Source: a virus
Lineage: Duplodnaviria > Caudoviricetes
IMG/VR virus record: IMGVR_UViG_3300022553_000001
Coordinates: 3,250 to 67,249 of that record
Reading direction: 5' to 3' (one strand)
Length of the DNA: 64,000 bases
Each line of letters begins with the position of its first letter. The stretch's first letter is position 1. A program made the position numbers and the translations under genes. Positions 2,605 to 60,938 of the stretch are shown in pieces. A model generated the notes under the pieces. That model searched no databases and was not told the origin of the DNA. It worked only from the letters and a program-made list of their open reading frames with translations.

Positions 2605-2893
2605 ATCCGATATCGCGAGTTTCTGGGATACCTCTGAAATCGAAATACAGGAACAAGTATTATTATTATCCGGCAAAACAAAATACCAACTGCCCGATTG
2701 CGCCGCGTTGTATACGTGGTGGCGTTATTGCAATAAACGGTCAAAGGCTCGTCTGCGACCGGTAATCGAACAAATCTTAGAAAGAGGAGAACAAAGTGTC
2801 CGACAATCTGCAAGTGAACTATCTACGGCTCGATGCGCTCGAAGTAATGAAATGGGAGCAAAACCCAAAACTTCATGTAGACAACTTGCTTGA
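2594..2893 (+). CDS. hypothetical protein
   Basis: Coupled to the helicase stop; 3' end overlaps the next gene. Confidence 0.4.
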   Translation: MVAESDIASFWDTSEIEIQEQVLLLSGKTKYQLPDCAALYTWWRYCNKRSKARLRPVIEQILERGEQSVRQSASELSTARCARSNEMGAKPKTSCRQLA

Positions 2894-3728
2894 TGAAAGT
2901 ATCGAGAAGTTTGGCTTTAACGACCCAATTGGCGTAGACTATGAACATAGCATCATAGTCGAGGGACACGGACGTATCGAGCGACTGCGCAACCGCAAGA
3001 GCGCCGGTAAGCCCGCACCCAAAAACATTGTGATCGATGGCGCTGACGGCGAGTGGATCGTGCCCACCGTGGAGCTGTCCTTTGCAGATAAAAACGCGGC
3101 ATACCTTTATGCCATCGCTCATAACCGCTCGAACACAAAAGATTTCCACTTGGAAGATTACAAAACGGACAAACTGGCCACGATGCGCGAGGCCGGGCAA
3201 CTGGACTTACTGGGCTTTGAGACCCTGGGACAGTCTGCGACGATGCCCAAATTCGAGTTACCCGAACTCAAACCCTTTGACGCCTCATCTCTGCCCGATG
3301 CGCCCGGCACGCAAATCGTTGCCCCACAGTCCTTTGTGGTAATGATTACTTTTCCAACTTACAACCAGATGCGCGAAGCGCTCTGCGCCTTAACGTACGG
3401 CGAGCGCAAAAGTTTGCCTCAGGGGGCTAGGCTCTGTTCTATTGAAGGCGGGGCAATCTTGGCGCGGTGGAACAAAGATTTGATGCAAATTTCAATCAGC
3501 GCGCCAATTGTCGAAGCCACACAGACTGGAATGCTCGGAGTGCCGGATACCAAAGTACCGGTCATCTTTTGGGACACGCCAACAGAGCCGGGCGAACCCA
3601 AATCGCGCGGCAAAGAAAAACCAACCGAGGTCGGCGGACTGTGTACTATGTGCGGCGGAAGCAAATTTACAATGGTCAAGAATGAAAAATTTACTTGCCC
3701 ACAGTGTAGCAGGAAAGGTGAATTATGA
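2796..3728 (+). CDS. ParB/Srx N-terminal-domain protein with C-terminal Zn ribbon
   Basis: NPKLH..ESIEKFGFNDPI..IVEGHGR and AYLYAIAHNR ParB-like motifs; CxxC..CxxC at the C-terminus. Confidence 0.8.
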   Translation: MSDNLQVNYLRLDALEVMKWEQNPKLHVDNLLDESIEKFGFNDPIGVDYEHSIIVEGHGRIERLRNRKSAGKPAPKNIVIDGADGEWIVPTVELSFADKNAAYLYAIAHNRSNTKDFHLEDYKTDKLATMREAGQLDLLGFETLGQSATMPKFELPELKPFDASSLPDAPGTQIVAPQSFVVMITFPTYNQMREALCALTYGERKSLPQGARLCSIEGGAILARWNKDLMQISISAPIVEATQTGMLGVPDTKVPVIFWDTPTEPGEPKSRGKEKPTEVGGLCTMCGGSKFTMVKNEKFTCPQCSRKGEL

Positions 3729-3892
3729 CGCTAGAAGAACTTCTCAAAGAACACGAAGTTTCGGTTCGCCACGACATAAAAGATTACACGTATCTTTTGT
3801 GGGATGGAGAAACATATCTGATAATAAAGGAAAATGGCGAGAGAAACTTTGGCGACAACCTTGACGCCGCACTCGATGAGTTTCTGAAATGA
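3725..3892 (+). CDS. small hypothetical protein
   Basis: 55-aa ORF coupled by ATGA overlaps on both sides. Confidence 0.5.
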   Translation: MTLEELLKEHEVSVRHDIKDYTYLLWDGETYLIIKENGERNFGDNLDAALDEFLK

Positions 3893-4686
3893 GCCGAGTA
3901 GTAGTCTTTGGGTGGTTCGGAGGTAAAGCCTCGCATCTCAACTTCATCTTGCCTAATTTGCCAAAGTGCCGACATTACGTTGAACCATTCGGCGGCAGCG
4001 CGGCTGTGCTACTGAACCGCGAACCTAGTCCCATTGAAACCTACAACGATCTGAATGGAGATCTGGTGAACTTTTTCCGCGTGCTGAGAGATCGAGGGCC
4101 GGAGTTACAAGAGAAACTGGAGCTGACCCTATATGCACGGGAAGAATTCCGCTTAGCACTGGAACCATGCGAAAATGAACTGGAGAGAGCAAGGAGATTC
4201 TATATTCGTGTGCGGCAGGCATTCAAGGCATCGATGTTAGGAAATTCTTGGAGCAGAGAATATAAAAATCCAATTGGAATTCCACGTTGGTTAAACGGGA
4301 TCGAATGTCTACCAGATTGCTATACAAGATTCAAACACGTGCAGATTGACCATCTCAATGCCCTCAATCTCATCCAAAAATATGATTCTCCTGACACCTT
4401 GTTCTACTGCGACCCACCCTATGTCTGGGATTTCAAGGACAACAAGTTCCAAGATGACTACGGAATAGCACATTCAGTCGGCGATGCAGCGGTACTTGCT
4501 CGTTCTTTACATTCAATCCAAGGTCTTGCGGCTATCAGTAATTACGCCGGAGTTTACGATGATCTGTATCACGATTGGCGGAGACTTGAGGATAAGCCGA
4601 AAGTAAGCTCGGCGGCACTGGTTAATCGAGCAATTCGGCAAGAGATTCTGTGGTGTAATTACGACAAAGAGAGAAAAAGGTTATGA
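3889..4686 (+). CDS. dam: Dam-like (D12 class) DNA adenine methyltransferase
   Basis: WFGGK, YVEPFGGSAAV, YNDLNGDLVNFF, FYCDPPY motifs. Confidence 0.92.
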   Translation: MSRVVVFGWFGGKASHLNFILPNLPKCRHYVEPFGGSAAVLLNREPSPIETYNDLNGDLVNFFRVLRDRGPELQEKLELTLYAREEFRLALEPCENELERARRFYIRVRQAFKASMLGNSWSREYKNPIGIPRWLNGIECLPDCYTRFKHVQIDHLNALNLIQKYDSPDTLFYCDPPYVWDFKDNKFQDDYGIAHSVGDAAVLARSLHSIQGLAAISNYAGVYDDLYHDWRRLEDKPKVSSAALVNRAIRQEILWCNYDKERKRL

Positions 4687-4753: not shown

Positions 4754-5629
4754 ATGCACAATCCATATTCCTTAAAGCCGGAGATGGTTCGTGGATGCAC
4801 AATGCGGTGCGTGTTCTGTTCTTTGAGACACCAGACCTGGGCAGAAGAAAAATACGAATATATTTCCGAAGAACTCTGGAAACAATATATTGACGCCGTC
4901 GCAGAATGGTTGCCAAAATGCAGGATGGAAATAGCGAACCGCGGAGAGCAAACAATCCACTCTAAGTTTTTAGAATTGATTGCCTACGCTCGACAGAAAC
5001 TCCCTCGCGTTCAAATTCTTGTCTCAACCAACGGCGATCTAAGTCAGAAAATCAGAGAAGAAAATTACGTTTTTTGGGTAGATCAAGCCCAACAAGCCGG
5101 TGTAAATATCTTCATGTTTGATTGTTACACACAGCCACGACTCGACCAATTCACAAGATTATTTAGCGGCAGAACAGAACTTTTCTTTGACGGATTCAAT
5201 CCATACCCGTATCGCAGCGGCAAATTCAAGGCTCTCTGCATCAAAGATGCCGTACCGCGCCCGGTTAAGGAGAACAGGATACTTCAATATCATAACCAAG
5301 GCGGAAATGCAGTCGTATCTGGAAAAGCCGCAGAACTCTATAATATACCCGTCCTGGAAGAGCCGCTTCAAAGAATGTGCGCTCGCCCCTTCAGAGAAAT
5401 GCCGATGTGGTTAGACGGATCTATCCCTATTTGCTGTGATGACTGGGCAGATAAAGGCGTTGTCGGCAAATTCCCAGACAAGACTCTGAAAGAACTCTGG
5501 TTGCTCTACGACCCTTATCGAAAAAACCTGCTGGAGAAAAATCGCGGCGCGCAGAAACCATGTGACAAATGTTCAGAACGAGCCGGATTCCGTTGGGCAT
5601 TAGAAAAGAAGTGGTTCGATGAGAAATAA
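4754..5629 (+). CDS. radical SAM protein with SPASM domain
   Basis: CTMRCVFC (CX3CX2C); C-terminal CARPF..ICCDDW..PCDKC SPASM pattern. Confidence 0.88.
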   Translation: MHNPYSLKPEMVRGCTMRCVFCSLRHQTWAEEKYEYISEELWKQYIDAVAEWLPKCRMEIANRGEQTIHSKFLELIAYARQKLPRVQILVSTNGDLSQKIREENYVFWVDQAQQAGVNIFMFDCYTQPRLDQFTRLFSGRTELFFDGFNPYPYRSGKFKALCIKDAVPRPVKENRILQYHNQGGNAVVSGKAAELYNIPVLEEPLQRMCARPFREMPMWLDGSIPICCDDWADKGVVGKFPDKTLKELWLLYDPYRKNLLEKNRGAQKPCDKCSERAGFRWALEKKWFDEK

Positions 5630-6626
5630 ACAAGATACGTTTACGACAGAAGAACATTTCAAGTTCTTCTCTGAATTCTGCAAATTGGAAATGCTGAGCG
5701 GTGGTCCAGATCCACAGATTCCACTTGTCGGAGAGATGAGCAAAAACGAATCTATGCAGGAGCGCATCTGGCGCGCCGGTTGCTATATATCGGTTTACAA
5801 TGTTCCATTTGCGGCGGCCATTTGGCAAAATTGGTCTTGGGAGAGAATGGAAAAAGAGAAAGAGAATCTCTTGCCTTGGCTACAAGAAAACTGGAAAGGC
5901 ATCGTTACTCGACTTGAACGGCGATGCGTTCGACGACCAGAATGGATGAACGAATACTTTTTAAGTTATTTTGATTTCGCCAAGAACATTCTGCCAGAAT
6001 TACAAAAAGCCACAGAACAATTCTCTCCGGAACAACGGTACGTTGCATTCTGGGACATATCCAACGAAAAGATTAGCCGATTCGGTCGTTATGTCGCGCT
6101 CAAGCTCTTAGAGTCTTACAAACAATATTGTGGCATGAAACTCGAAGCTCCGGACATTCGGCCAAAAGACGGTTGGTCGCCAAGAATAACGCTGGCTAGG
6201 TTGTACTCCTCTGACTCCGCTGCCTTAAATTCAAAAGACAACGCGCAAATACCGTTAGTCAACAAACGAGTTGCCGAACTGCAGGAACGTCTCAAGGGGT
6301 CTGGGGTAAATATCGATCTATTCAAATTGCAAGTAGTTCTTTGCGAATATCGCGAGAGTTACGAAGGACTTAGACAATACCCCGGTCGTTCTCACGACAG
6401 CGAACTCGGCTATTACAACAAGGCAATCAATTATTGGAAACAGGTGCCGGGGTTGCTTGAAACACGGAAAGCGATATTCCCGAATCAGCATCTCGGAGAA
6501 ATTGGCGGATGGGAAGTCGCAAGAAATGAACTGGGAGAAGTATTATCGAAATACAAATACACTTGGAGTGATTTATTATTCGATTATAAGGCGACGGCAG
6601 ACTTCGCTTATCCGGTGAAACGATGA
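5619..6626 (+). CDS. aGPT-Pplase / amino acid:DNA transferase (AADT)-like base-modification enzyme
   Basis: GGPDP, ERIWRAGCY..VY, RFGRYVALKLLE helix-hairpin-like segment and QVVLCEY..YPGRSHD resemble glycosylase-fold thymine hypermodification transferases; adjacent P-loop kinase. Confidence 0.62.
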   Translation: MRNKQDTFTTEEHFKFFSEFCKLEMLSGGPDPQIPLVGEMSKNESMQERIWRAGCYISVYNVPFAAAIWQNWSWERMEKEKENLLPWLQENWKGIVTRLERRCVRRPEWMNEYFLSYFDFAKNILPELQKATEQFSPEQRYVAFWDISNEKISRFGRYVALKLLESYKQYCGMKLEAPDIRPKDGWSPRITLARLYSSDSAALNSKDNAQIPLVNKRVAELQERLKGSGVNIDLFKLQVVLCEYRESYEGLRQYPGRSHDSELGYYNKAINYWKQVPGLLETRKAIFPNQHLGEIGGWEVARNELGEVLSKYKYTWSDLLFDYKATADFAYPVKR

Positions 6627-7048
6627 AGATCTACGAGATTCTTCCCGGTAAACTGTACCAATGCGGAAAGACTAACGAACTGTCCCCAGAGCAAAAAGCA
6701 AAATTGATATCAGATTACGGAATCACAACAGTCGTCAACTTCTGGCGATTCGAAGATCCCGACTTAATTTCTTCTGTTGAATACGAGCATTGCTATATCC
6801 CGGATGGAAAACTTCATTGTCCAGAAGAGATGCGACTACTCGCCAAAAAGACGGCAGAAAAAATAAGGGGAGGCAAAGTAGTACTCTCTCAATGTTATGG
6901 GGGGCGCAATCGCTCTGGGTTATTTAGCACAATGGTGTTAAAGGAATTGCTCGGAATTAGCGGAAAAGAGGCGGTCGCGATTGTTCAGAAGCAAAGACCC
7001 AATTCGCTAGTCAACCCGATCTTCCGTCAGTTCTTGGAATCCGAATAA
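6623..7048 (+). CDS. dual-specificity/PTP-like phosphatase
   Basis: CX5R catalytic loop QCYGGRNRSG. Confidence 0.85.
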   Translation: MKIYEILPGKLYQCGKTNELSPEQKAKLISDYGITTVVNFWRFEDPDLISSVEYEHCYIPDGKLHCPEEMRLLAKKTAEKIRGGKVVLSQCYGGRNRSGLFSTMVLKELLGISGKEAVAIVQKQRPNSLVNPIFRQFLESE

Positions 7049-7051
7049 ATT

Positions 7052-7085
7052 TTTAAGGTTCGAAACAAGAAATCTGTAGTATAAT
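7052..7085 (+). promoter_or_regulatory. phage promoter TTTAAGGTT-N19-TATAAT
   Basis: Same motif and spacing at five intergenic sites. Confidence 0.8.
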
Positions 7086-7094
7086 GGAGGCAAG

Positions 7095-7370
7095 ATGTTT
7101 TGCAAAATATTCGAGAATAAACAATTTGACGGTTTTCCCGGCGCAAGTGACTTTGAGAATGGGAAGCCACTCGTTTATGAAGCCGACAACAGAATGTTTG
7201 TTGCCGACGATCACGGCGTTGGTCTATTTCTGGGCGATGAACAAGACGAAAAGGGCGGCTATTTCATCGAGTATCCCCGTCACTTCAAGCAAGCTCAAGC
7301 AGATTTATTTGTCAAGTCTTTGTCTTCTTTGACAAACAAAGAACTCAAAGAGATTGCGACAATCCTATGA
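7095..7370 (+). CDS. hypothetical protein
   Basis: GGAGG SD; first gene after the promoter. Confidence 0.65.
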   Translation: MFCKIFENKQFDGFPGASDFENGKPLVYEADNRMFVADDHGVGLFLGDEQDEKGGYFIEYPRHFKQAQADLFVKSLSSLTNKELKEIATIL

Positions 7371-7909
7371 AAATCATAGGTATCTTCGGCGAACCGGCAA
7401 CCGGCAAAAGCGCTCTGATGCAAAACATCATAGCCCGTTATTCGGGATGGAAATCGCTCAAGTGGAATCTGGTTAAGGGTCTTGTCCAAGAAGAACGCAA
7501 GATTCTTGTTCTCGGGGAATATTCGACCGGCGAGAAATTTGGCGGGACAGACCGGCTGGCTATGAACGCCCAGCCCCATGTCGAAAAATTCTTGGAGACC
7601 TGCGCAAAGATCGCAGATTACGACAATTACTTGATTCTGTTCGAGGGCGACCGGCTCTCGAACGCTAAGTTCTTTGAATTCTGTCAAAAGAACTTTGAGA
7701 GTCGGTTCTTTGCACTGGTTACCGAAGAAGCCATAAAAGAAGCGCGCCATGCCTCGCGAGATAACCAAAATAAAACTTGGCTACTTGGAAGAAAGACTAA
7801 AGTAGCCAATCTGATCAAGAGATTTAATCTGCAGACGTTTAACCACAATGTTCCAGAGGACACCGATCTGGTCGCAAACTTGATCCTGTTGCCGGATGCC
7901 GGGAGATAA
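7367..7909 (+). CDS. P-loop nucleotide kinase, 5-hmdU DNA kinase-like
   Basis: GEPATGKS Walker A, LGEY..FGGTDRL, LFEGDRL; typical of kinases partnered with aGPT-Pplases. Confidence 0.72.
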   Translation: MKIIGIFGEPATGKSALMQNIIARYSGWKSLKWNLVKGLVQEERKILVLGEYSTGEKFGGTDRLAMNAQPHVEKFLETCAKIADYDNYLILFEGDRLSNAKFFEFCQKNFESRFFALVTEEAIKEARHASRDNQNKTWLLGRKTKVANLIKRFNLQTFNHNVPEDTDLVANLILLPDAGR

Positions 7910-9260
7910 CATGGAACTTGAGAAAGGGTACTATTCTAGTCCAAGGTGGAGCGGAGAATTGTTAGATTGTGCATTACCCGTCACAATGGATACGTATTCA
8001 AATTGTGCGTTCAAGTGTCTTTATTGCTTTAGTGCTTACCAAAGATTGGTTGGGGCAGGCAAAGAAGACTATAAACACAATATTTTTCAAGCGATCAGTG
8101 TTGAGCGAACCAAGAAATTATTTCGTGGTGAATTGTTGAACAGTCAATTCAACAATTATATAAAAGCGAGAATGGTAGTACAGTGGGGCGGACTCAGCGA
8201 TGCCTTCGATTATGCTGAACGACAATTTGGCAAAACGCTCGAATTGCTTAGGTTTTTCCGCTCTATTGAATATCCTCTTTCCATTAGCACCAAGGGAACT
8301 TGGTTTTTGCAAGATTCGCGCTATCGCAAGGTACTGCAAAACGCAAAACACATCCACTGGAAAATTTCCATTATTACACTGGATGAGAAAAAGGCGCACG
8401 ACATTGAGATGGGCGTGACTTCTCCCTTGGACAGATTCAATGCCATTTCAGAACTCAAAAAACTCGGCGCACCTGCCGTGACATTCCGTTTCCGTCCATT
8501 CATTTTAGGAATAAGTGCGGATTACCCATTCTCTGAAAATAGCAAACAGCAAATTGATGCTCTGGTCAAAATTGCTAAGGACAGCGGAGCAGATTCTGTG
8601 ACCACCGAATTTATGTGCATCGAATCTCGTGCAAGAAATATCGCTGCAGAGCGCTTCGACAAAATTGGGAAAGTTTCTGGTCTTGGCGATCTGATAAAAT
8701 TCTATGCCGTGAATGGATACGCGTCTGGATTAATGCGCCTTAATTACAACCTCAAGCGACCATATATTGAAGCAATACAAGAAAGTGCACAGAAATACGG
8801 ACTGGAGTTTTTTGTCAGCGACTGTCATCACAAAGAGAAGAGCTGTCGCGCTGCTTGTTGTGGGTTACCAAACTTCGCGCCCTTTGACAACTACAACCGA
8901 GGGCAATTCGCCGAGGCAATCTTGATCGCCAAACAGAAGAGCAGAGTGCATTGGTCAGATATCTCCCAAAATACCGAATGGCTTAAATCTCTCTCGTTCT
9001 TTGCCGAAGGATTCAATACTCAATCTACACAAAAACGGGCCGACAACAAATATATGTCAATGTACGACCATATGCACCAAAAGTGGAATGACCCCAAAAG
9101 CAGAACGTCGCCCGCTATTTATTTCGGCGGCGTACTTGTGCCCAGTGCCCCCGATGAGAACGGAGATATAGTATATCTTTACAACGAGCCATTTGTTGCG
9201 CGCGGAGAGCAAGTTAAATCAGTAGCAGAGCTGGAGCAGAAACTCAAAGGAGAAACATGA
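7896..9260 (+). CDS. radical SAM protein, spore-photoproduct-lyase-like
   Basis: DTYSNCAFKCLYC (CX3CX2C), QWGGLSD, ISTKG, FRFRPFI. Confidence 0.82.
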   Translation: MPGDNMELEKGYYSSPRWSGELLDCALPVTMDTYSNCAFKCLYCFSAYQRLVGAGKEDYKHNIFQAISVERTKKLFRGELLNSQFNNYIKARMVVQWGGLSDAFDYAERQFGKTLELLRFFRSIEYPLSISTKGTWFLQDSRYRKVLQNAKHIHWKISIITLDEKKAHDIEMGVTSPLDRFNAISELKKLGAPAVTFRFRPFILGISADYPFSENSKQQIDALVKIAKDSGADSVTTEFMCIESRARNIAAERFDKIGKVSGLGDLIKFYAVNGYASGLMRLNYNLKRPYIEAIQESAQKYGLEFFVSDCHHKEKSCRAACCGLPNFAPFDNYNRGQFAEAILIAKQKSRVHWSDISQNTEWLKSLSFFAEGFNTQSTQKRADNKYMSMYDHMHQKWNDPKSRTSPAIYFGGVLVPSAPDENGDIVYLYNEPFVARGEQVKSVAELEQKLKGET

Positions 9261-22792: not shown

Positions 22793-23320
22793 TCATTTAC
22801 CACCAAACCACATCTTATTGAAATCAGTATCCTTGTGCTCGGTATTCTTCCAGGATTCTTCGCTAACATCTTGTCCAACAACCCGAATGTTTCTTGGCGA
22901 AATATCTTTTGCTGATACCACACTAGATTCTGGCATTGAACTATCTCTAAATACCGTTGATCCTTTTGGTAAATAAATTTCCAATATCGAATGCGGTTCA
23001 CCTTCTGAAGTATCTTGAAGCTGTTACTTGATAACCTTGACTTGCTTTAGATTCCCAAGGAATATGCCTTCTACATCATTTGGATATTCGTTTGCACCGC
23101 CTTTCCCAGATTCTCTTGCTAATAAACCTTGCTTTCTAATTGACCCAACATTTGATGTAGGAGTAACATGATAGAGCACTGTTCCCTTGGATAAAGTATA
23201 CGATGGTTGACTACCGCCCCCTCCCCCGCTCCCGCCAACTTCTCCGGGACGTCCGGCATGCTCAAAGTTACCAGAACCCTGACCCCCAAATGATTCTCTA
23301 AGTTTTATTTTCCAAAACAT
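22793..23320 (-). pseudogene. ADP-ribosyltransferase-fold protein with GSGN-HAGRPG linker, split by one in-frame TAA (23024-23026)
   Basis: LYHVT..SIRKQGL..GIFL before the stop; ILEIYLP..D..ISPRNIRV after it, same frame. Confidence 0.6.
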
Positions 23321-24656
23321 TAGCTTTGCTCAAAAGATAACTGTTTAGGCGTTGTGTTATATCGTACTTCATCGGCGCTTTCAAATTCACTCCTCGAAAA
23401 TCTGCTCCAGCAGTCCATCTGTTTGCTGCCACTGTTGCGGCAATCTGAATTTCGTCCAGTACATCGTTTGCCAGTCGCGCCGGCGGTGGCGTCTGTAGAA
23501 GAGTCGCCTGGGCTTTGAGCTGTCGTTCTCTTCGAGTTTTTTCATCGGTTGTCCAATGTACGTAGAACGCCTGTGGTAACTGCGGCATGGCAGCCAATCC
23601 AATTCGTTCATAGGTCTCTACCAATTTGTCCAGATTATTTTCTAACGTCAATCCCCAACCAAACTTGCGCTTTCTCTTTGCATCGCGCTTCAAGAACTCG
23701 ATGTTATCAATCGCCTTAATCAGCGCATCGTGCCATTGTTCCGGCGTGTTCTCGACCACCGCGCCGTGTTCCGCCAGCTCCGCATAGACGTTGCTCTTAC
23801 TCGCAATCCACGGTACACCACAGATCAGATATTCCATTGCCTTAATCCACGAGCGGTGATTGTCGTAACTCTTATATCCCTCGCGCATATCTAGCGGCGC
23901 AATTCCAATGTCGAACGTCTTAACGATGTGCGGCCATTGTTGCGGTGATACGCCGGTTTGTAGTACTAGTTGCTCTTTCGGGATATTGAGCAAATTTGCT
24001 AATCTTGGATCATTGCCACAAATCTTAATCCTGACTTGTGTTCGTTCCTTACAGACCTGTTCCAGTGCTTCTTTGATCCCACTAAATATCCATGAGTCGT
24101 AATGAGAAACCGAGCCGCCCCATCCAATAGTCACTACTCCCGGTTGCAATTTCTGTGGCTGTACGTTCAGATACCAATTACCCTGGGCGTAATTCGGCAC
24201 CCAGTATCCCGGCACTACGTCTTTCCAGTCATCGAGTATAACTTTACTGGGGCTAGTTAGCCCGTCACAATGCCTAAGTCCCTCAGTCAAAAGCGCAACC
24301 GGAGATTCAGACAGCTTTTGCGCGTTCTTGATCCAGAACTCGTGAGCAGGATTACTGTGCGGGAGACTGGGATAATCATCGTCTAAATCCGCCACAACCG
24401 CACGTCGTAAGCCGCGCCAATAATCAATTGCATCTATTATGGATCTATCGATCAGATTCCGCTGTACTACAATCACTTGTGCCGAGCCCACCAGGTCTTG
24501 CACCGCCGGGTTAGAATAGTCAGCGAAACTCTGGATATAAACCAGTTTTGCGGTGTGCTTGCCACTACGATTCAGCACATCTGCGGGGGAAAGGGCGCGC
24601 CACTGACTGCAATTCCACTCCGATTCTCCGTCCGCAAATATTGTACAGATATTCAA
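23298..24656 (-). CDS. glycosyltransferase (GT4-like, GT-B)
   Basis: DLDDDY, IGWGGSVSH, FDIGIAPL..RSWIKAMEY..GVPWIAS. Confidence 0.85.
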   Translation of the reverse strand: MNICTIFADGESEWNCSQWRALSPADVLNRSGKHTAKLVYIQSFADYSNPAVQDLVGSAQVIVVQRNLIDRSIIDAIDYWRGLRRAVVADLDDDYPSLPHSNPAHEFWIKNAQKLSESPVALLTEGLRHCDGLTSPSKVILDDWKDVVPGYWVPNYAQGNWYLNVQPQKLQPGVVTIGWGGSVSHYDSWIFSGIKEALEQVCKERTQVRIKICGNDPRLANLLNIPKEQLVLQTGVSPQQWPHIVKTFDIGIAPLDMREGYKSYDNHRSWIKAMEYLICGVPWIASKSNVYAELAEHGAVVENTPEQWHDALIKAIDNIEFLKRDAKRKRKFGWGLTLENNLDKLVETYERIGLAAMPQLPQAFYVHWTTDEKTRRERQLKAQATLLQTPPPARLANDVLDEIQIAATVAANRWTAGADFRGVNLKAPMKYDITQRLNSYLLSKANVLENKT

Positions 24657-29007: not shown

Positions 29008-29988
29008 TTACACAACACTTGTAACCAAGTACCCCGAATCAGCGCTCGTGACCTTCGAGTCCCAATTCTGCAAGCATTCGATTACATCCTGATGTTCTTC
29101 CATTTCACGATACCGATTGACCTGACGCGCTTTCCACTGGAAAATGTAACCTGCTGCCGGGATCATAAGTCCCGGGGTCGTAGGCACATAACCAAAGAAT
29201 GCGTAGTTGCCCCAGATGTCGCCGAAGCTGTCCGTCGCGCCTTCGAGCGCATTGTTGATGACCGCCGTGCCGATGATGATCTTGTCAATGTCGAACAGCG
29301 ATGCGATCAACGCCGGAGTCAAAATACCCAGTTGTGTGTATTTGATACGATCCATCAGATCAGGATGACGACGAAGCGAAGCTAGTACTGTCGCACCCAT
29401 CACACACACATTCGGATACCGCCCGATAAGGCCACGGATTGTCTCACGAATACCACTCGATCCTGTCACATCTTTGATAGGATCACTGGTATCAGCCGAC
29501 CATGCACCGCCGTTGTTGATTGCGTTCGCAGTACTCGTGGTTGTCCAGTTACCTGAAGTTTGCACTAAGTCCGCTACGTCCTTCTCCAAACGAATCAGGA
29601 GCTTTTCAGTCGCGAACTCGGTTGCCTCGCGGTCTGGATTCAGCGGATTGTCCGCGTTGTCCACGATCTCGTCAGGAACCGTTTTCGCCGCAGCGTATTC
29701 CACTGCCGCGTACGGCCCGGGAGCAGACAGCGAGTAATCCACTCGCGCGGCACGCGTACCCGGCGCGCGTACCTTTGCCTCGTCGCGGAACCAAGCGCCC
29801 TTCTCGAATTTGAAGTACAGGTCGCTTTGTTTCACAACAGGAACGATGGGGAAAATCTGATCCGCGATGTAGTTGACGTTGCGGTAGGCAATGCTGATAT
29901 TTGTCATCGGCGCATCAATATGCACCATATGACGGGTCGGTGTCGCAAACCGCTCAATCTTTGGATCGCGGTAAACGTATTGTCTCAT
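29008..29988 (-). CDS. major capsid protein (lambda gpE-like)
   Basis: HIDAPMTNISIAYRN..IADQIFPIVPV; LRRHPDLMDRIKYT. Confidence 0.9.
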   Translation of the reverse strand: MRQYVYRDPKIERFATPTRHMVHIDAPMTNISIAYRNVNYIADQIFPIVPVVKQSDLYFKFEKGAWFRDEAKVRAPGTRAARVDYSLSAPGPYAAVEYAAAKTVPDEIVDNADNPLNPDREATEFATEKLLIRLEKDVADLVQTSGNWTTTSTANAINNGGAWSADTSDPIKDVTGSSGIRETIRGLIGRYPNVCVMGATVLASLRRHPDLMDRIKYTQLGILTPALIASLFDIDKIIIGTAVINNALEGATDSFGDIWGNYAFFGYVPTTPGLMIPAAGYIFQWKARQVNRYREMEEHQDVIECLQNWDSKVTSADSGYLVTSVV

Positions 29989-32671: not shown

Positions 32672-35566
32672 TCATTTGAGTTTAGCATATAATTCTTCCC
32701 ATACCCTCGGGGCTTTATAGTTCCTTGACCCTGACCTTAGTCGAGATATTTCCGCAAGCGTTTCCTCAACTGCAATTGCACGTTGCTGTGGGCTTCTAGC
32801 CCATTTCCAAAAATTTGAACTGTAAGGAGTAATTCCGCCCGCTTTCGCTAATTCATTAATGGCATTGTCAGATAAATGTCTAACTAATCCAGAACGATCT
32901 AGCTTTAGATGCGTAACCTCGTGCGCTATAATTCCACGTAATGATTTTTGGTCTTTCATCGCCTCTGGAAACACAGTTATTCTCACATCAACCGGGTCAT
33001 ATCTAGCATATAACCGTTTCTCGGGGATCGTAGTAGATGATACATTGTTATAAACTATATCATAATTACTTAATTCATATTCTTTTGCAATTTGCGATAC
33101 CAATTTCTCGCGACCAACTTTATCAATTGGCATTTTGTCACTTCCACCGCCCGGTCCACTACCACCAACTTCTCCGGGACGTCCGGCGTGTCCTGCATTG
33201 CCTGACCCAAGACCACCGAACTGCTCTCCGGCAGAAAACCGCTCGAACACACCGCTGCCCGGTGCAGTCTCGATCTTCAGCGTGCACCGACAATTGGCGT
33301 AACACGTGTCACTGCCGTCTCCAGGTATTCCTGCCCGCGCAACCATATCGTCCCAATTTTCGTAGATTCCCGCTTTATCGGGGCAAGTATTACAGTGCTT
33401 GGCATTGTCATCTAGCACACGCTCAACCTTCAGGTTATCGCCGTTTGGGTCTTCGGCAATCGCGTCACCGATACCATTGAAGATCGCATTCCAAAATCCG
33501 CCGGCATAACTGGCCACGCGCCCGGTGAACACGCCCAACGTTGCCGTGAGTGCGGCCACTCCGCCCAGCATAAACGCGGGATCGTGCATGTCCAATCGCG
33601 CACGCGCGTCAATCGCAGGGATCAGGCTGTTCTCCAGCCACGTCTCGTTGGTTGTCACCAACTGTTGTAATGTCGCCAAGCCATTAGGACTCAACGCTCC
33701 GCTCGCGCCTATCTGCATCGCGCCGAGCAGGCCCGCGCGCCCGGCATCTATTAGCATCACAAGCAGTGCCGCAAGCGCAGCAGTCAGAATTGCATTTCTC
33801 ACGGTCTCATCTTGTTCGTTTGCTAGTTTCTTGCTCGTGCTGTCCTGCCAGTCCGCATAGATCGCTTCAAGTTGTCCCTGGTATTCGTTGGTCGCGGTCT
33901 CATATTTCGCGCCACCGTAGGCGCGGCGAGTCTGTACTTGGAACTCCTCACTCGCTTTTTCTGTTGTCCCTTTCGGCATTCCGCGTGCCGGAGCCTGTGC
34001 GCCAGGATTCGGCGACTCACCCGGCTTTGGTGCTTCGACTGCTGTGCCTTTTGGTTGATCCTGTTTGTTGCCGTTCCCGTTGCCGCTCGGTACTTCGGTC
34101 TTCGCTTGCTGAGCTTGTTGCAGTGCGGCGAGTTGCGCTTGCTTACCGGCTTCTGCTTTCCGTTGCATATCTTGAATAGTCGGCGCGCCCTCAGGTATAT
34201 CAGGCAAGTGAGCAGCCTCGCGCAAATATTTCTGAAGATTGTCATCGGGTACAAGCAAATTTGCACCGACCAACTTATTCACATACTCCGACAGCGCTAC
34301 AAGATCAGGCACATTGATCTCGGAATGCTTGAGTTGCGGCATCTCGTCGTACTTAAATGTGTTGAGCTTAAGAAGACGCGGAACCGCGTGGCGCATGATA
34401 ACTTGGCAAATTATCTCCGCCCAAGCGGTATTCGACAAGATAAACATGTCCGTCGAATCCTTGCTCAACGCATATGACCCTACATTCTCCATGCCCAACA
34501 TAATAAATTCGGCTAGACAACTCATCGCCATCCGCTTCTCGTAACGCGAGATAACTTTGTCGAAGTCCAATGTCCGCGCGCCGCCCGTCGCGCTGACGAT
34601 CTCGAACAACATGCCTTTGCCATCGCCTGTCATCTTTGGATACGGGATAACTACGCCCTCTTGTTCATCTGCACGAACATCGCGGACAACTTGCTTGGCA
34701 AATTCTGTATCTGACTGCGCACCCTGTTTCGCTGTATCGTAGCCCATGTACATAACCGGGATACCGCACCCCTGCCGCTCCATTGCTATTCCTTCGATCT
34801 CGCTGAAGTTCTTGGCATAGTACCAGGGAATATACATCGAGCGAAGCAACGAACGGCCTTCCGGGTTGTTTTTGGCCACACTCGTTCTGAACAATAATAC
34901 CTTTTCAATTGGTAAAGTACGCAGAATATAATCAGGCGGCGCGATTTGGTTTATTCCCTGCACCCCGCCCGTCTCGTCCCAGATCCACTCCCTACCGGGA
35001 GCCAGAGTTTCCTGCGCCAGAGGCAACCATTTTCTCCATCCTATACGCCCGTCATCGTACTTTGACTCGGGCGATTTGTCCAAGCCCTTCCTAACTTTGT
35101 AAACTAACTCGTGGATACTGAAACCGAATTGCAGCATTGTCAGAATCTGGCTCAGCGTGTCCTGCCAACTTGTACTCATGTCCTCAAGGCAGCCGTCCAA
35201 GAAGTCGCTTAGCTCGTGATCTTTATCGTCCGGTGGCTCAAAGTAGAACTTGACACGTCGCAGGCTCATCTCAATCGCGAACAGGATTGCGCTGATGACA
35301 GGACTGTTTTCCCGCATCTCCTTATAGGTTTGCGGCGCGCCTTTGAGACGAAGCTCTTTGATAAATTCTTCGTAGACCGTACCGCCAAAACGCGTAAGGC
35401 CACTGCTACCTAGTTCCTCAAACAGTTGCGCATTGGTCAGCGGCGGAGGTGGTTGTATCGCGCCAGCCGTCCTGTATGCAGGCATCGTCGCACGGTCGAG
35501 CGATTGACCGAACAACTCTGCTCTATTCGCTTTTGGTTTATTCTTGCTGCCGCGCGGACGACTCAA
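32672..35566 (-). CDS. portal (DUF935/Mu gp29-like) fused to a MuF-like domain and a HEXXH metallopeptidase
   Basis: NNPEGRSLLR..ERQGCGIP portal core; CNTC..NCRC MuF-type Cys motif; GSGNAGHAGRPGEVGGS linker; IAHEVTH..EETLAE. Confidence 0.85.
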   Translation of the reverse strand: MSRPRGSKNKPKANRAELFGQSLDRATMPAYRTAGAIQPPPPLTNAQLFEELGSSGLTRFGGTVYEEFIKELRLKGAPQTYKEMRENSPVISAILFAIEMSLRRVKFYFEPPDDKDHELSDFLDGCLEDMSTSWQDTLSQILTMLQFGFSIHELVYKVRKGLDKSPESKYDDGRIGWRKWLPLAQETLAPGREWIWDETGGVQGINQIAPPDYILRTLPIEKVLLFRTSVAKNNPEGRSLLRSMYIPWYYAKNFSEIEGIAMERQGCGIPVMYMGYDTAKQGAQSDTEFAKQVVRDVRADEQEGVVIPYPKMTGDGKGMLFEIVSATGGARTLDFDKVISRYEKRMAMSCLAEFIMLGMENVGSYALSKDSTDMFILSNTAWAEIICQVIMRHAVPRLLKLNTFKYDEMPQLKHSEINVPDLVALSEYVNKLVGANLLVPDDNLQKYLREAAHLPDIPEGAPTIQDMQRKAEAGKQAQLAALQQAQQAKTEVPSGNGNGNKQDQPKGTAVEAPKPGESPNPGAQAPARGMPKGTTEKASEEFQVQTRRAYGGAKYETATNEYQGQLEAIYADWQDSTSKKLANEQDETVRNAILTAALAALLVMLIDAGRAGLLGAMQIGASGALSPNGLATLQQLVTTNETWLENSLIPAIDARARLDMHDPAFMLGGVAALTATLGVFTGRVASYAGGFWNAIFNGIGDAIAEDPNGDNLKVERVLDDNAKHCNTCPDKAGIYENWDDMVARAGIPGDGSDTCYANCRCTLKIETAPGSGVFERFSAGEQFGGLGSGNAGHAGRPGEVGGSGPGGGSDKMPIDKVGREKLVSQIAKEYELSNYDIVYNNVSSTTIPEKRLYARYDPVDVRITVFPEAMKDQKSLRGIIAHEVTHLKLDRSGLVRHLSDNAINELAKAGGITPYSSNFWKWARSPQQRAIAVEETLAEISRLRSGSRNYKAPRVWEELYAKLK

Positions 35567-37046: not shown

Positions 37047-38138
37047 TTATCCCTCCCTCCAAATTCTTCCCGCGCCGCATTCACAATTCAATGTCGCCAA
37101 CCCGGTGATCTCATCGCCATCTTTTGTATACAGAGTATGCAATCCGTTCTTCTTCTTGACATAACCCAAGTAGCAAGAACCTTTTCGGCAAAAGAGTGGC
37201 TTTGCGCCTTGGGGTATCTTCGGCGTGTCCTCATTGAGCCAAGACCAATCCCCGCGCCACTCTACAGTATTCACGCTCTGTTGGCTTTTCCAACGCGCCC
37301 GCTGTTCCAAAGAATACATACTCGGCCCAGTCTTTTCCATGATACCCGCGTTGATTTGTGCAATTTCTGGATTGGCATCTAGAAATCGAACTACCTGTTG
37401 CAGAGGAGGATTGATTCCTAATTCGGAAATAACTTTATTCACTAATTCCAAATCTTGGGGCGTATCCAATTCTAAGCGATAGGGTCGGTAAAATGCTTCA
37501 GTGAACTTGCGAGGGGGTACGGGATAAATGACTTGATAACCTAGCCGATAGGCATCGATATCAGAAGTCACATGTTCGCGCGCCTGGAGTATTCTCTCTT
37601 TCCACGCGCGGTCATTCGGCGGAGCCGCGGCTTCCTTGAAATCGAATTTTAACTTACCATTCATTCGCTCTAAACAATCCAATGATACCGGAAATTCCCC
37701 CGCCCCATACACTGGCACACGTTCGCCTAAGCCCCACAGCCGCGCCGTCTCAGCGGCGGGGTAATATCTGAACAGGTCGAACGCTAAATCAACTAGTTCC
37801 CAACCGATAAAGGGACAATCGGTAGTTGCGCGCAGAATTCTTGTAGTATTAGGTAATTCTTTATCTGAATTATTCAAACACTTGACCGCGCCCAAAACCC
37901 GCCCTAGCACATCTGTCTTGTCGCCACGAAAAACCTGCACTGCCTGGGGCATCAGGGTGTCTGCGATCAGATCGTCTGATTTCTCGGTGCTCGTAGCGAT
38001 TATAATCTCGTCGACTTTTTTGCAATTCTGAAATCGCTCGATCAGCCGCACCAAGTTCGGTTTGCCACCCAGATCGATCGATGCCTTGCCGGGCAATCGC
38101 TCACTATCTAATCTCGCTGTGATTACAATAATGTTCAT
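37047..38138 (-). CDS. SpsF/PseF-like cytidylyltransferase with C-terminal extension
   Basis: ITARLDSERLPGK, IATS..DD, FRGDKTDVLGR, RATTDCPF, RLELDTPQD. Confidence 0.88.
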   Translation of the reverse strand: MNIIVITARLDSERLPGKASIDLGGKPNLVRLIERFQNCKKVDEIIIATSTEKSDDLIADTLMPQAVQVFRGDKTDVLGRVLGAVKCLNNSDKELPNTTRILRATTDCPFIGWELVDLAFDLFRYYPAAETARLWGLGERVPVYGAGEFPVSLDCLERMNGKLKFDFKEAAAPPNDRAWKERILQAREHVTSDIDAYRLGYQVIYPVPPRKFTEAFYRPYRLELDTPQDLELVNKVISELGINPPLQQVVRFLDANPEIAQINAGIMEKTGPSMYSLEQRARWKSQQSVNTVEWRGDWSWLNEDTPKIPQGAKPLFCRKGSCYLGYVKKKNGLHTLYTKDGDEITGLATLNCECGAGRIWREG

Positions 38139-38440
38139 TTGTTATCAGCCCGTCGCATACTATAAATTAAAACTAAATACGCAATCATGTCGCTAGTTAT
38201 TTCCAGTAAAATATCTAGCTTCATTGTGTCTCCATCTCTCATTAAACGAACTATGTGCTTAGCAAGCAGTGACAATCCGTATTTAACTCGGTTAGTCCCT
38301 AAAAGCATCGCTCCAATATTAAAATTCAGAAATACTTGCTCCCGGCTCGCATAAGCCATGTTCTTAGAATCCAATTTATCATTCACTTCAGCAAAAAGCA
38401 CTTCTTTGCTAATCTGTAAATCTTTGAATGTTTCTCTCAT
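38135..38440 (-). CDS. DUF1599/Nmad1 (MazG-like) protein
   Basis: KNMAYA..FLNF..LAKH..SDMIAYLVL pattern. Confidence 0.55.
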   Translation of the reverse strand: MRETFKDLQISKEVLFAEVNDKLDSKNMAYASREQVFLNFNIGAMLLGTNRVKYGLSLLAKHIVRLMRDGDTMKLDILLEITSDMIAYLVLIYSMRRADNK

Positions 38441-39411
38441 TTCCCTGCCATCCTTTCCGCTTGCCGAATTGCCTCGACCACCAACGGATGCTCGCCGACC
38501 AATTCTCTCAAATCTTGCAACCGCTCGCCCGGGGCAACTTTGCGCGCCGAGTCGCGCGTTACTCGCGCGCAGGTATCCCGAACCGCCGGGTGTGCCAAAC
38601 CGAAATGCTCAACATTGTAAACGCGATCCCATATCTCGTTGCTTCGCCTAGGATAACTACGCTCAAGTCCCCAGACAATTTCCCGCATGAGATGGGTAAT
38701 TGCGCTCTGTGACAACTTATCATCTACCACCTCATCAATATGGGTGAACCCACGTGCTATGCCCACATAGCCCAGTACTGCATGAAAAGCGCAATGACAA
38801 TACCACTTCAGCGCCCAACTAAAATCCATATCGCTTGAGCAAAAAATACCCTTGATATGTTCCAGCCCTTTCTCCAATGTATCTGGAACGACCAAGTACC
38901 CCGTACTGTCCCCGTTCGCCAGCGCCGGGTCGAGCGCCTGTACTTCGAGGTCAACCTCAGGTATTATACACTCCGCAATGCCCTGATTGAAAATAAGATT
39001 ATTAATCGTCTCGTTAGCAAGTCCCTGTGTCAAATTCTTTAAGTGTAAATCCGCGTGGGGCATATTCTCTACGACCAATACATCTATACGCTTGGCATCT
39101 TTCGGCCTGCCCACAAGAACGCTAGCCAATCGATTGGCAACCTCTTCCATATTTTCCACACGTACACAACAAACAACTATGTCCGTTACCGCCAGGGATT
39201 CGTCCTCTGCGCTCAACATACACGCCGCCACCGGCCCGACCCACTGCAACCCGTTGCCGGTATTCAGCGGATAGTAGCCATTCGTTGAAAGACGCCGCAC
39301 TACTTCTACCCGCTTTTCGACAAACACCACGCGGTACCCGGCATTACAGAAAATTCGACCGATTAAGCCACGGCCAATCTGTCCGGCTCCATAAATCAGG
39401 ATTCGCATCAT
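38437..39411 (-). CDS. mannitol-1-phosphate 5-dehydrogenase-like oxidoreductase
   Basis: YGAGQIGRGLIG, VENM, HAVLGYVG, RVTRDSARKVAPGERL. Confidence 0.8.
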   Translation of the reverse strand: MMRILIYGAGQIGRGLIGRIFCNAGYRVVFVEKRVEVVRRLSTNGYYPLNTGNGLQWVGPVAACMLSAEDESLAVTDIVVCCVRVENMEEVANRLASVLVGRPKDAKRIDVLVVENMPHADLHLKNLTQGLANETINNLIFNQGIAECIIPEVDLEVQALDPALANGDSTGYLVVPDTLEKGLEHIKGIFCSSDMDFSWALKWYCHCAFHAVLGYVGIARGFTHIDEVVDDKLSQSAITHLMREIVWGLERSYPRRSNEIWDRVYNVEHFGLAHPAVRDTCARVTRDSARKVAPGERLQDLRELVGEHPLVVEAIRQAERMAGK

Positions 39412-39695
39412 ACGTCCTTCAAATCCTGTCTAAAGGATTGCGCTAAATAACCATCAACCCATTCCTTAATTGCTCCCATTGGAGTTTCACCATAGCCTAT
39501 TGCTGTATCTGGTTCGATCGATTCTGGCGCATCTGCCAAAACCGCCATAAAGACTTTTTGCTGCCTTTCTCGATCATTATAATATCTGATTTCAAAACTA
39601 ATAATTTGTCCTCTCCGTTTATTTTCGCTTATATCTATCCCCTGCTCTGTCTCAATTTTGATTTTGCCTAGCGCGTCTTCCGCCTTACTACTCAT
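39408..39695 (-). CDS. hypothetical protein
   Basis: 95-aa coupled ORF. Confidence 0.55.
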   Translation of the reverse strand: MSSKAEDALGKIKIETEQGIDISENKRRGQIISFEIRYYNDRERQQKVFMAVLADAPESIEPDTAIGYGETPMGAIKEWVDGYLAQSFRQDLKDV

Positions 39696-39931: not shown

Positions 39932-39934
39932 TCT

Positions 39935-43166: not shown

Positions 43167-43167
43167 T

Positions 43168-45302: not shown

Positions 45303-45444
45303 CTTAATTCGCTCCGATCCTCACGAATTATCATTAGCCACACAAATAGATCGAGAATAAATCCCGCCAATACCCAAATCCAATCGCCATGAGCAATGGC
45401 ATAGAATACCATTGCCACAGGTACAAAAGAAACCAAGAGACAAA

Positions 45445-60812: not shown

Positions 60813-60938
60813 ATAGTTGCCAACTGAAAGAGCGTAGTATTATTCACGCCAAAATACCGCAGTGTGACCTAGCCGCATTGAGCGCTCTTTCAGTTGGCAA
60901 ACTTAAAGGCGTAGATGCGGCTAGTTATTTGGAGGCAA

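Follow-up and report, generated by a model that had tools for sequence, protein, structure and literature searches.

A phage operon for probable thymidine hypermodification in which a radical SAM enzyme may carry out the first step

Six genes on the plus strand of the 64-kb stretch of phage DNA analysed here (the window) have overlapping starts and stops and form a single operon at positions 4754–9260. The operon is best read, with a probability of roughly 0.6, as directing post-replicative thymidine hypermodification in which a radical SAM (rSAM) enzyme takes the first step instead of a dUMP hydroxymethylase or an oxygen-dependent TET/JBP oxidase. Across relatives the AADT-phosphatase-kinase module has three mutually exclusive partners, one of which is an rSAM family resembling spore photoproduct lyase (SPL), and homologues of this SPL-like rSAM are fused to TAGT, a TET-associated glycosyltransferase; these two observations make it most likely that the SPL-like rSAM acts on DNA without oxygen to produce 5-hmU or something equivalent. 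If so, the first-step chemistry would be oxygen-independent and SAM-consuming; against this stands the source of the phage, lake water, which is not clearly an anoxic setting. No paper describing rSAM-started thymine hypermodification was found in the literature. The chemical steps, above all those of the SPL-like rSAM, AADT, phosphatase and SPASM enzyme, we infer from what is shown below: the identity and fold of the proteins, the layout of the operon and the distribution of its genes among relatives.

All genes named in the first-pass annotation were found on the plus strand, at the positions given there (Table 1). The source record is 67,249 bp long and ∼64% complete (CheckV). The Dam gene adjoins the module but is not a conserved part of it; only 4 of the fetched loci contain a homologue of it. 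The 91-residue open reading frame has no Pfam, PHROG or NCBIfam match, no homologue in the fetched loci and no informative Atlas match.

Table 1. Genes of the operon and its upstream neighbours, with the evidence for each assignment.
Feature	Coordinates	Strand	Evidence
ParB-like protein	2796..3728	+	phrog_620 match 1.7e-13; N-terminal ParB/Srx domain, GHGR motif
Dam-type N6-adenine DNA methyltransferase	3889..4686	+	Pfam MethyltransfD12 E 1.1e-17; phrog_56 E 8e-52
BtrN-like radical SAM/SPASM enzyme	4754..5629	+	CX3CX2C motif; Pfam Radical_SAM + SPASM
Amino-acid:DNA transferase, AADT (aGPT-Pplase2 / ADDT)	5619..6626	+	Pfam ADDT PF18724; PUGT-like predicted fold
CX5R dual-specificity-type phosphatase	6623..7048	+	CYGGRNR motif
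91-aa ORF, no assigned family	7095..7370	+	within operon
5-hmdU DNA kinase-type P-loop kinase	7367..7909	+	Walker A; phrog_800
SPL-like radical SAM enzyme, 454 aa	7896..9260	+	CX3CX2C motif; SPL structural match

The AADT had been expected to have a glycosylase-like fold, and both the family and the fold hold up. The protein scores 34.5 bits against Pfam ADDT (cut-off 26.2), and its predicted model (pLDDT 94.6) superimposes on PaMx11 gp46/PUGT, the 5-PmdU glycinyltransferase (PDB 8Z2M, 8Z2N; PMC11472151), with Z 17.1 over 244 residues and an rmsd of 3.2 (8Z2N); HhH DNA glycosylases are the next structural matches (Z 8.8). Cys242, invariant among 30 homologues, occupies the position of the catalytic cysteine of PUGT and aligns with Cys247 of M6 gp51. 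Unlike PUGT, to which it is 13% identical, the window AADT is extended at both termini by conserved segments, is obligately partnered by a phosphatase that is often fused to it, and probably does not use glycine as its nucleophile.

The CX5R phosphatase gives weak DSPc and Y_phosphatase3 matches, and its top PDB match is a small PTP (E 1e-6). It is an obligate partner of this AADT clade: in 61 of 64 IMG/VR loci a phosphatase either follows the AADT or is joined to it in one protein. PF00782+PF18724 fusion proteins number at least 10, and one locus (L034) encodes a phosphatase-kinase fusion. Ino1 (myo-inositol-1-phosphate synthase) is frequent in the relatives (15 of 27 AADT-clade records), which, together with the near-constant phosphatase, suggests that the modified base is probably undescribed. 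The kinase (Walker A GEPATGKS) follows the AADT in 58 of the 64 clade loci. Its earlier assignment stands on the PHROG side, with a match at 1.4e-14 to phrog_800, the family that includes the validated M6 gp54 5-HMUDK (2e-39), and falls short on the other, since the Ploopntkinase3 score of 23.1 bits is below the cut-off of 27.

The last gene of the operon overlaps the kinase gene and encodes the SPL-like rSAM (motif CAFKCLYC). SPL is adapted to holding a radical on the thymine methyl in DNA. It is the top structural match of the window protein (PDB 4FHC and related; Z 16.5–16.9 over 258 residues, against 14.3 for the next rSAM class), and the two have the CX3CX2C motif and, putatively, thymine methyl radical chemistry in DNA in common. 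The identity is 10–11%, however, and unlike SPL the window enzyme sits in a modification context rather than a repair context and carries an additional conserved C-terminal domain of 145 residues with the motif SD-HH-K...CCG, in which D309, H311, C321 and C322 are invariant. No SplB equivalog was matched in NCBIfam, only the Rv2578c and PA0069 families at 54 bits. The enzyme has 1725 homologues; among the best 120, ∼63 carry a TAGT fusion, and some homologues are fused to an FkbM methyltransferase.

ParB homologues stand beside the rSAM gene in 64 of 80 rSAM loci, and SAM synthetase is present in 16 of the 80. These ParBs are homologous to the TET-associated ones (hhalign probability 98.4%, E 8.5e-15). 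ParB is a published activator of phage thymine dioxygenases and is found with kinases, AADTs and terminases in the ParB-dependent 5mYOX TET/JBP clusters (O'Toole et al. 2026, PMC13229309), a paper in which radical SAM is not mentioned. We propose that the ParB-like protein may activate or load the SPL-like rSAM. The window resembles the 5mYOX clusters in its ParB-like partner, P-loop kinase and AADT and in a probable post-replicative route; in many relatives the cluster also adjoins the terminase, and some relatives pair the same AADT-phosphatase-kinase module with ParB and TET/JBP. It differs in lacking an Fe/2OG dioxygenase, with an SPL-like rSAM in its place.

Three alternative partners accompany the AADT-phosphatase-kinase module across relatives: a dUMP hydroxymethylase, ParB with TET/JBP (cluster c33, Tet_JBP in Pfam), or ParB with the SPL-like rSAM family. 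The corresponding gene orders are Ino1-[FkbM or rSAM-SPASM]-AADT-DSP-kinase-HMUDK_hel-TS-YfbR..PolA; ParB-TET/JBP-AADT-DSP-kinase; and ParB..AADT-DSP-kinase-rSAM, the last being found in the window and in L001, L034 and L069. The thymidylate-synthase-fold (TS) genes of the relatives are read as dUMP hydroxymethylases because the same gene adjoins the same module in M6. Among 27 long AADT-clade records, TS is present in 17 and TET in 7 more. When these and the window's own record were scanned (28 in all), the rSAM was found only in G000 and G011, both without TS and TET. TS and TET are likewise absent from 31 further rSAM-bearing records, 17 of which are at least 90% complete, giving 0 of 33 overall. 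Eight near-complete genomes have the rSAM and AADT and neither TS nor TET, so that exactly one of the three partners is present in 16 of 16 near-complete AADT-bearing genomes; no record has two. On the AADT tree, where the nearest relatives of the window protein are of TS type (L005) and rSAM type (L001), no fewer than 4 changes are required to explain the rSAM state; phylogenetically independent contrasts number only 4, in related genomes, and the test as set up is near-circular.

The absence of an hmU source, previously reported for the window, extends to the full 67,249-bp record: PF00303 and PF12851 have zero matches, HMMs made from the relatives' TS and TET genes return nothing at E ≤ 10, and no thymidylate-synthase-fold, TET/JBP, Ino1 or PolA gene was found in this ∼64% complete sequence. 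Ino1, TAGT and HMUDK_hel were not found in the window, and the cluster contains no PLP enzyme, confirming that a PLP decarboxylase is missing there. Because the record is incomplete, its missing third could contain a TS or TET gene, and the operon would then be an ordinary hmU-based cluster, which we regard as unlikely. Consistent with such a cluster, L005, the closest AADT relative with context, uses TS; the TS gene is distant from the AADT in G002 and G003 (∼35 kb in some relatives); and an NT5C deoxynucleotidase at 48107–48619 is similar to the nucleotidases found alongside pre-replicative routes. The 67-kb record carries a RepO-like initiator and a DnaB-like helicase, however, and no phage DNA polymerase for hmdUTP use, and none of the 33 records with the SPL-like rSAM family, 17 of them near-complete, has TS or TET. 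A known hydroxymethylase-based route is the 5-NedU pathway of Pseudomonas phage M6, with gp51 AADT, gp52 PLP decarboxylase, gp54 5-HMUDK, gp58 dUMP hydroxymethylase and gp53 (PMC8989533). No other SPL-like rSAM of this pathway than gp53 has been characterised, and gp53 is an isomerase, not an oxidiser. M6 and the window both combine an AADT, a 5-HMUDK-type kinase of the same PHROG family and an SPL-like rSAM in one cluster. M6 differs in having a thymidylate-synthase-type hydroxymethylase, an HD nucleotidase and a PLP decarboxylase, the last of which does not follow the rSAM in the window, and in lacking the phosphatase, ParB and SPASM enzyme. The two SPL-like enzymes are distant homologues whose similarity covers the rSAM core (hhalign probability 93%), but BLASTP gives no significant match to gp53, and the window enzyme has a different conserved domain in its C-terminal half. 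In 20 of the 80 rSAM loci, moreover, ParB and the rSAM occur with no AADT or kinase nearby, where an isomerase would have no substrate, and the TAGT fusions common among the homologues also argue against an ordinary hmU-based cluster.

Two further readings concern the target of the SPL-like rSAM. It might repair UV photoproducts in densely packed capsid DNA and be a chance neighbour of the modification module: SPL is its top structural match, sources name its homologues 'DNA repair photolyase', and the phage comes from lake water. This is very unlikely given the tight operon linkage and overlap with the kinase gene, the fusions to a DNA glycosyltransferase or FkbM methyltransferase, the conserved ParB partner, the extra C-terminal domain and the missing SplB equivalog match; it would also leave eight complete AADT-bearing genomes without a substrate source. 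Least probable of all is that the rSAM acts on another methylated base, Dam N6-methyladenine or 5-methylcytosine, with the kinase and AADT elaborating the product. Dam is adjacent in the window, the L001 cluster includes both Dam and an N6/N4 methyltransferase, and phage TET enzymes are reported to use 5mC as well (PMC8256090). The scarcity of Dam homologues in the fetched loci speaks against this reading, as does the lack of a C5-cytosine methyltransferase in the cluster; the pairing of the same module with TS-fold genes would fix the substrate as 5-hmU, and the AADT fold and conserved cysteine match the 5-PmdU transferase.

The first-pass annotation had suggested that an rSAM activates the thymine methyl in place of a hydroxymethylase or TET/JBP. 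Its argument from SPL-likeness was not decisive by itself, because the SPL-like M6 gp53 is already known as an isomerase (PMC8989533); the genome comparison, through the exclusive partners, the eight genomes, the TAGT fusions and ParB, now lends the suggestion support. In the pathway with rSAM initiation, phage DNA would be copied with ordinary thymine, and the ParB-like protein would help the SPL-like rSAM act on duplex DNA. A 5'-deoxyadenosyl radical would attack a flipped-out thymine, abstracting a hydrogen from its C5-methyl group, and the resulting allylic radical would be oxidised and captured by water to give 5-hmdU. Methyl-to-hydroxymethyl oxidation by an rSAM enzyme is known for BciD, whereas we know of no direct precedent for net hydroxylation by an SPL-like enzyme. 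The P-loop kinase would then form 5-phosphomethyl-dU, and the conserved AADT cysteine would attack C6, with displacement of the phosphate and attachment of a nucleophile. For this clade a phosphorylated alcohol or polyol is the probable nucleophile; relatives encode Ino1 directly upstream. The CX5R phosphatase may strip the remaining phosphate or clear unused 5-phosphomethyl-dU, and the BtrN-like rSAM-SPASM enzyme may finally oxidise a hydroxyl of the appended group.

The rSAM-SPASM enzyme (motif CTMRCVFC) scores 30.9 bits against Pfam Radical_SAM (cut-off 29.5) and E 5e-4 against SPASM. BtrN is a cyclitol dehydrogenase, and for the window enzyme we propose a role as tailoring dehydrogenase of the appended group. 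BtrN (2-deoxy-scyllo-inosamine dehydrogenase; PDB 4M7S, 4M7T) is its sole PDB sequence match, and both are small rSAM enzymes that carry an auxiliary-cluster domain at the C terminus; the match is weak (E 1e-4) and confined to the C-terminal half, and the substrate here, unlike that of BtrN, would be a DNA-attached group. The rSAM-SPASM enzyme and the phosphatase are dedicated partners of this AADT clade, the 39 rSAM-SPASM homologues being on contigs with AADT-phosphatase. In relatives the rSAM-SPASM gene lies between the AADT gene and Ino1, the inositol-phosphate synthase, and in others an FkbM methyltransferase takes the same slot.

Six plus-strand ORFs, overlapping or abutting one another, occupy positions 4754-9260, and Pfam and PHROG matches together with predicted folds confirm the gene cluster that the first-pass annotation had described there. 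They encode a radical SAM (rSAM)-SPASM protein (P0001), an amino-acid:DNA transferase (AADT; P0002), a CX5R phosphatase (DSP; P0003), a 91-aa product, a P-loop kinase (P0005) and an SPL-like rSAM protein (P0006). No relatives of the 91-aa ORF were detected, and it does not resemble the DUF4031 gene that L001, the closest syntenic relative (21 kb of a 97-kb ENA contig covered), has in the corresponding place. A promoter and terminator scan gave counts not above those of shuffled sequence, and operon boundaries were not drawn from it. The cluster had no blastn match in 50,697 GenBank phages.

Features of the modification operon and of the rest of the window
Feature	Position	Strand	Evidence or location
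ParB-like gene	2796-3728		Upstream of operon; phrog_620 match, N-terminal ParB domain
Dam	3889-4686		Upstream of operon
P0001	4754-5629	+	CX3CX2C motif, Cys-rich C-terminus; Radical_SAM and near-threshold SPASM
P0002	5619-6626	+	Pfam ADDT above cut-off; PUGT-like fold
P0003	6623-7048	+	Motif CYGGRNR; weak DSPc and Y_phosphatase3 matches
P0005	7367-7909	+	Walker A motif GEPATGKS; phrog_800
P0006	7896-9260	+	CX3CX2C motif; SPL-like model
452-aa protein	23298-24656	-	In virion-gene block; weak glycosyltransferase match phrog_7162, 3e-8
Major head gene	29008-29988		
Portal	32672-35566	-	phrog_113
Nonulosonic-acid-type sugar cluster	37047-47320		10 kb
Homing-endonuclease-like gene	41136-41933	-	
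NT5C-type 5'(3')-deoxyribonucleotidase	48107-48619	-	
Homing-endonuclease-like gene	48616-49506	-	
Large terminase	49817-51334	-	phrog_2, 5e-39
RNA ligase family gene	51739-52641	-	PF09414, 8e-13; near terminase
Homing-endonuclease-like gene	60915-61733	+	

To our knowledge, 5-hydroxymethylpyrimidines arise in DNA only through a thymidylate-synthase homologue acting at the nucleotide level or through an O2-dependent Fe/2OG dioxygenase. Across the whole 67,249-bp IMG/VR virus record, of which the window covers bases 3250-67249, neither PF00303 (thymidylate-synthase fold, TS) nor PF12851 (TET/JBP) found a match, and the same was true of PF01658 (Ino1), PF18723 (HMUDK_hel), PF20691 (TET-associated glycosyltransferase, TAGT) and PF00476 (PolA). 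HMMs built from the TS, TET, Ino1, HMUDK_hel and TAGT genes of relatives gave no match among ORFs of at least 40 aa, even at E 10. The same Pfam TET search retrieved seven TET genes in relatives and thus works on virus records. The earlier observation that no hmU source is visible is borne out by both sets of models across a record that is ~64% complete by CheckV, a figure to be read with the fact that TS lies far from AADT in some relatives. Ino1 and TAGT, missing here, are both present in L001. The record also encodes an NT5C-type nucleotidase, a faint match to which adjoins AADT in L003; by drawing down a dNMP pool the enzyme could point to some pre-replicative nucleotide manipulation.

In the described pathway, hmU is converted to 5-PmdU by a 5-hmdU DNA kinase (5-HMUDK), AADT forms an amino-acid adduct and the adduct is then tailored; metagenomic clusters with TET/JBP replacing the hydroxymethylase have also been noted (Lee et al., PMC8989533). 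Pfam-labelled gene-order maps revealed three recurrent architectures around one AADT-phosphatase-kinase core. The first is Ino1-[FkbM methyltransferase or rSAM-SPASM]-AADT-DSP-kinase-HMUDK_hel-TS-YfbR nucleotidase..PolA, and the second is ParB-TET/JBP-AADT-DSP-kinase. The third, ParB ... AADT-DSP-kinase-SPL-like rSAM, is found in the window and in the related loci L001, L034 and L069. HMUDK_hel occurs in 31 of the 64 loci of the AADT-phosphatase clade around P0002, mostly of the TS type. Among 27 long clade records scanned in full, 17 have TS and 7 of the remaining 10 have TET/JBP; all eight clade records of 90% completeness or more carry TS or TET/JBP. A profile of the P0006 family matched 2 of the 28 records scanned, namely the window's own and G011, the 99-kb record with terminal repeats that holds L034; both are among the four of the 28 without TS and TET. 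The 31 long records that carry the rSAM, 17 of which are 90% complete or better, yielded neither a TS-fold nor a TET/JBP gene, and the Pfam model identifies AADT in 16 of the 31, eight of these near-complete.

All 16 near-complete AADT-bearing genomes examined carry exactly one of TS, TET/JBP and rSAM and none carries two, a count taken over related genomes with only about four independent transitions. On the AADT tree the rSAM state requires at least four changes, and the window's nearest neighbours are L005 (TS-type) and L001 (rSAM-type); compared with L005, [HMUDK_hel, TS, YfbR] is replaced in the window by [ParB, rSAM]. In an independent-pairs test on the tree, 4 of 4 contrasts ran the expected way (p 0.125); with unlabelled rows left out, the test can detect co-occurrence only and is not counted as support. 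The comparative genomics supports the earlier proposal that an rSAM enzyme stands in for hydroxymethylase or TET, by what would be activation of the thymine methyl.

The model of P0006 (pLDDT 88) is closest to SPL, with Z 16.5-16.9 against at most 14.3 for other rSAM classes, and shares with SPL the CX3CX2C motif (cluster cysteines C37, C41 and C44) and the SPL-type partial TIM barrel. SPL chemistry proceeds via a thymine allylic (methyl) radical in flipped-out DNA. The curated SplB model (NCBIfam) did not match P0006, which gave only 54-bit matches to the Rv2578c and PA0069 families (cut-offs 360-430); in Pfam, Radical_SAM fell under its cut-off and DUF1848 was weak. A C-terminal domain of 145 residues with invariant D309, H311, C321 and C322 is found neither in SPL nor in gp53, the SPL-like rSAM of Pseudomonas phage M6. 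PDB-sequence profile searches with the AADT and rSAM alignments returned nothing, matches coming from fold comparison alone, and tblastn of the rSAM against 50,697 GenBank phages was likewise negative. The family is large, with 1725 homologues in metagenomes and 161 loci in IMG/VR. Its recurrent operon in 80 IMG/VR rSAM loci, [SAM synthetase]-ParB-like-AADT (short form)-kinase-[GNAT]-rSAM, often lies directly upstream of terminase genes, and in variants TAGT takes the place of AADT and kinase. MetK, the SAM synthetase, heads the ParB-AADT-kinase-rSAM operon in 16 of the 80 loci (for example L106, L110, L120 and L132), which fits a high SAM demand by the radical SAM step. Single rSAM-TAGT polypeptides (P0141 and about 60 others) are about 700-730 aa long.

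The likeness to SPL might indicate repair of the photoproduct 5-thyminyl-5,6-dihydrothymine, but the genomic context of ParB, kinase, AADT and TAGT fusions argues for modification. A modifying role could be that of M6 gp53, an isomerase that was described as the first known case of an rSAM installing a modification in DNA (PMC8989533); the literature search found neither a later rSAM example nor a paper linking an SPL-like rSAM to thymine oxidation. P0006 has only the rSAM core in common with gp53 (hhalign 93%, E 2.8e-7, residues 26-244), BLASTP between the two was not significant, and P0006 gave no match to phrog_9252, the family of gp53. About 63 of the best 120 of the 1725 homologues are fused to TAGT and a few to the FkbM methyltransferase, and in 20 of the 80 loci ParB and rSAM occur without AADT or kinase nearby. 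The AADT-free loci and the TAGT fusions do not fit an enzyme that requires the AADT product, as a gp53-type isomerase would, and fit one that makes a hydroxymethyl acceptor. Together with the core-only likeness and the extra C-terminal domain, they make a gp53-type isomerase the less likely assignment.

The ParB-like gene provides a further link to thymine oxidation. One subclass of phage thymine dioxygenases requires a ParB-like activator on duplex DNA, and its genes are found alongside those for P-loop kinases, AADTs and terminases (O'Toole et al., PMC13229309); radical SAM is not mentioned in that paper. The rSAM-associated ParBs, the window's included, align with the TET-associated ParBs of the same AADT clade at an hhalign probability of 98.4%. 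The window thus has the ParB-like partner of the ParB-dependent 5mYOX module, whereas the TET/JBP Fe/2OG dioxygenase of that module is absent from the record.

P0002 matches PF18724 over residues 71-247 (34.5 bits, cut-off 26.2). Its AlphaFold model (pLDDT 94.6) superimposes on PaMx11 gp46 (PUGT; PDB 8Z2M, 8Z2N), a two-helix-bundle fold, with Z 17.0-17.1 over 244-245 residues and rmsd 3.2-3.3, and the next matches are HhH glycosylases at Z 8.8; the glycosylase-like fold on which the first-pass reading had depended is thus present. We know of no other amino-acid:DNA transferase with a solved structure. All of 30 homologues compared share Cys242 of P0002, which an hhalign comparison of low overall probability pairs with Cys247 of M6 gp51, the AADT of that phage; in PUGT the catalytic Cys247 attacks C6 (PMC11472151). 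P0002 is predicted by sequence and model to be an AADT (ADDT) of aGPT-Pplase clade 2 that would transfer a nucleophile onto 5-PmdU in DNA. Its homologues number 137 in metagenomes, with no close relatives found among cultured phages; a GenBank phage search yielded only actinophage aGPT-Pplase2 genes with 21-29% identity. The IMG/VR search found no related locus with the single AADT protein and recovered loci with the alignment as query.

P0005 matches phrog_800 at 1.4e-14, and M6 gp54, a validated 5-hmdU DNA kinase (PMC8989533), matches the same profile region at 2e-39; the GenBank label of gp54, 'terminase small subunit', is a mislabel. Direct BLASTP between the two was not significant, and P0005 scores 23.1 bits against Pfam Ploopntkinase3, under the cut-off of 27. 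By profile similarity, P0005 is of the same family as gp54. A kinase follows AADT in 58 of the 64 clade loci, and in 61 of 64 AADT either carries a fused phosphatase homologue or has one immediately after it; at least 10 P0002 homologues are AADT-phosphatase fusions. In L034 (11071-12135), a 354-aa phosphatase-kinase fusion lies downstream of Ino1-FkbM-AADT.

P0001 scores 30.9 bits against Radical_SAM (cut-off 29.5) and 20.6 bits against SPASM, slightly under the cut-off of 21.5, and its only PDB sequence match is BtrN (E 1e-4). Judged by these matches, it has the rSAM core and the C-terminal Cys-rich auxiliary-cluster domain that define BtrN-like dehydrogenases. In relatives, a BtrN-like enzyme occupies the same slot as the O-methyltransferase, either it or an FkbM methyltransferase often standing between Ino1 and AADT. 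About half of the clade (33 of 64 loci; 15 of 27 whole records) has Ino1 immediately ahead of the AADT-phosphatase-kinase core, which suggests an inositol-derived thymine adduct in these relatives; no paper linking inositol-phosphate synthase to DNA hypermodification was found. Such loci include L005 (1-14960), L007, L012 and L042.

The window probably encodes a variant thymidine hypermodification in which a new enzyme takes the first step and the AADT-phosphatase tailoring set is one not described before. The rSAM would take hydrogen directly from the thymine methyl, and the radical would be oxidised and hydrated to 5-hmdU. The kinase would phosphorylate 5-hmdU, and AADT would substitute the phosphate, with Cys242 as the candidate catalytic residue. 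The phosphatase, whose fusion to AADT in some lineages and to the kinase in L034 leads us to read it as a co-substrate processor, may act after the AADT step on the phosphorylated co-substrate, or alternatively clear unreacted 5-PmdU; a polyol would be modified by the BtrN-like enzyme. We give about even odds (0.5) to the full reading, in which the SPL-like rSAM family with its ParB-like helper is an O2-independent DNA thymine C5-methyl hydroxylase, a third 5-hmU route independent of TS-type and TET/JBP enzymes, and the AADT-phosphatase(-Ino1)-BtrN-like module builds an undescribed polyol- or cyclitol-type thymine adduct. As the sample came from lake water, 'oxygen-independent' describes the chemistry rather than a demonstrated ecological need.

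If correct, oxidation of thymine in duplex DNA by a radical SAM enzyme would be new enzymology, and would explain thymine hypermodification in many phages without polymerases and hydroxymethylases, among them temperate ones and ones that infect anaerobes. The enzyme might also serve as a tool for placing 5-hmU at chosen sites without oxygen. The obligate AADT-phosphatase pairing and the frequent Ino1 link point to a further class of DNA base, one not yet met by restriction systems and sequencing chemistries.

Elsewhere in the window, the nonulosonic-acid cluster (37-47 kb) was considered as a feeder of the pathway and rejected; it lies 30 kb away on the other strand, has no homologues in related loci and is accompanied by no linking transferase. 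It splits the large terminase from the portal and major head genes, and the 452-aa protein may be the transferase for this cluster. Unlike in most rSAM-bearing relatives, the modification operon is not beside the terminase. The three homing-endonuclease-like genes, one of them inside the sugar cluster, are of the DUF559/Vsr-like plus NUMOD3, GIY-YIG plus NUMOD3, and GIY-YIG plus five NUMOD3 repeats types.
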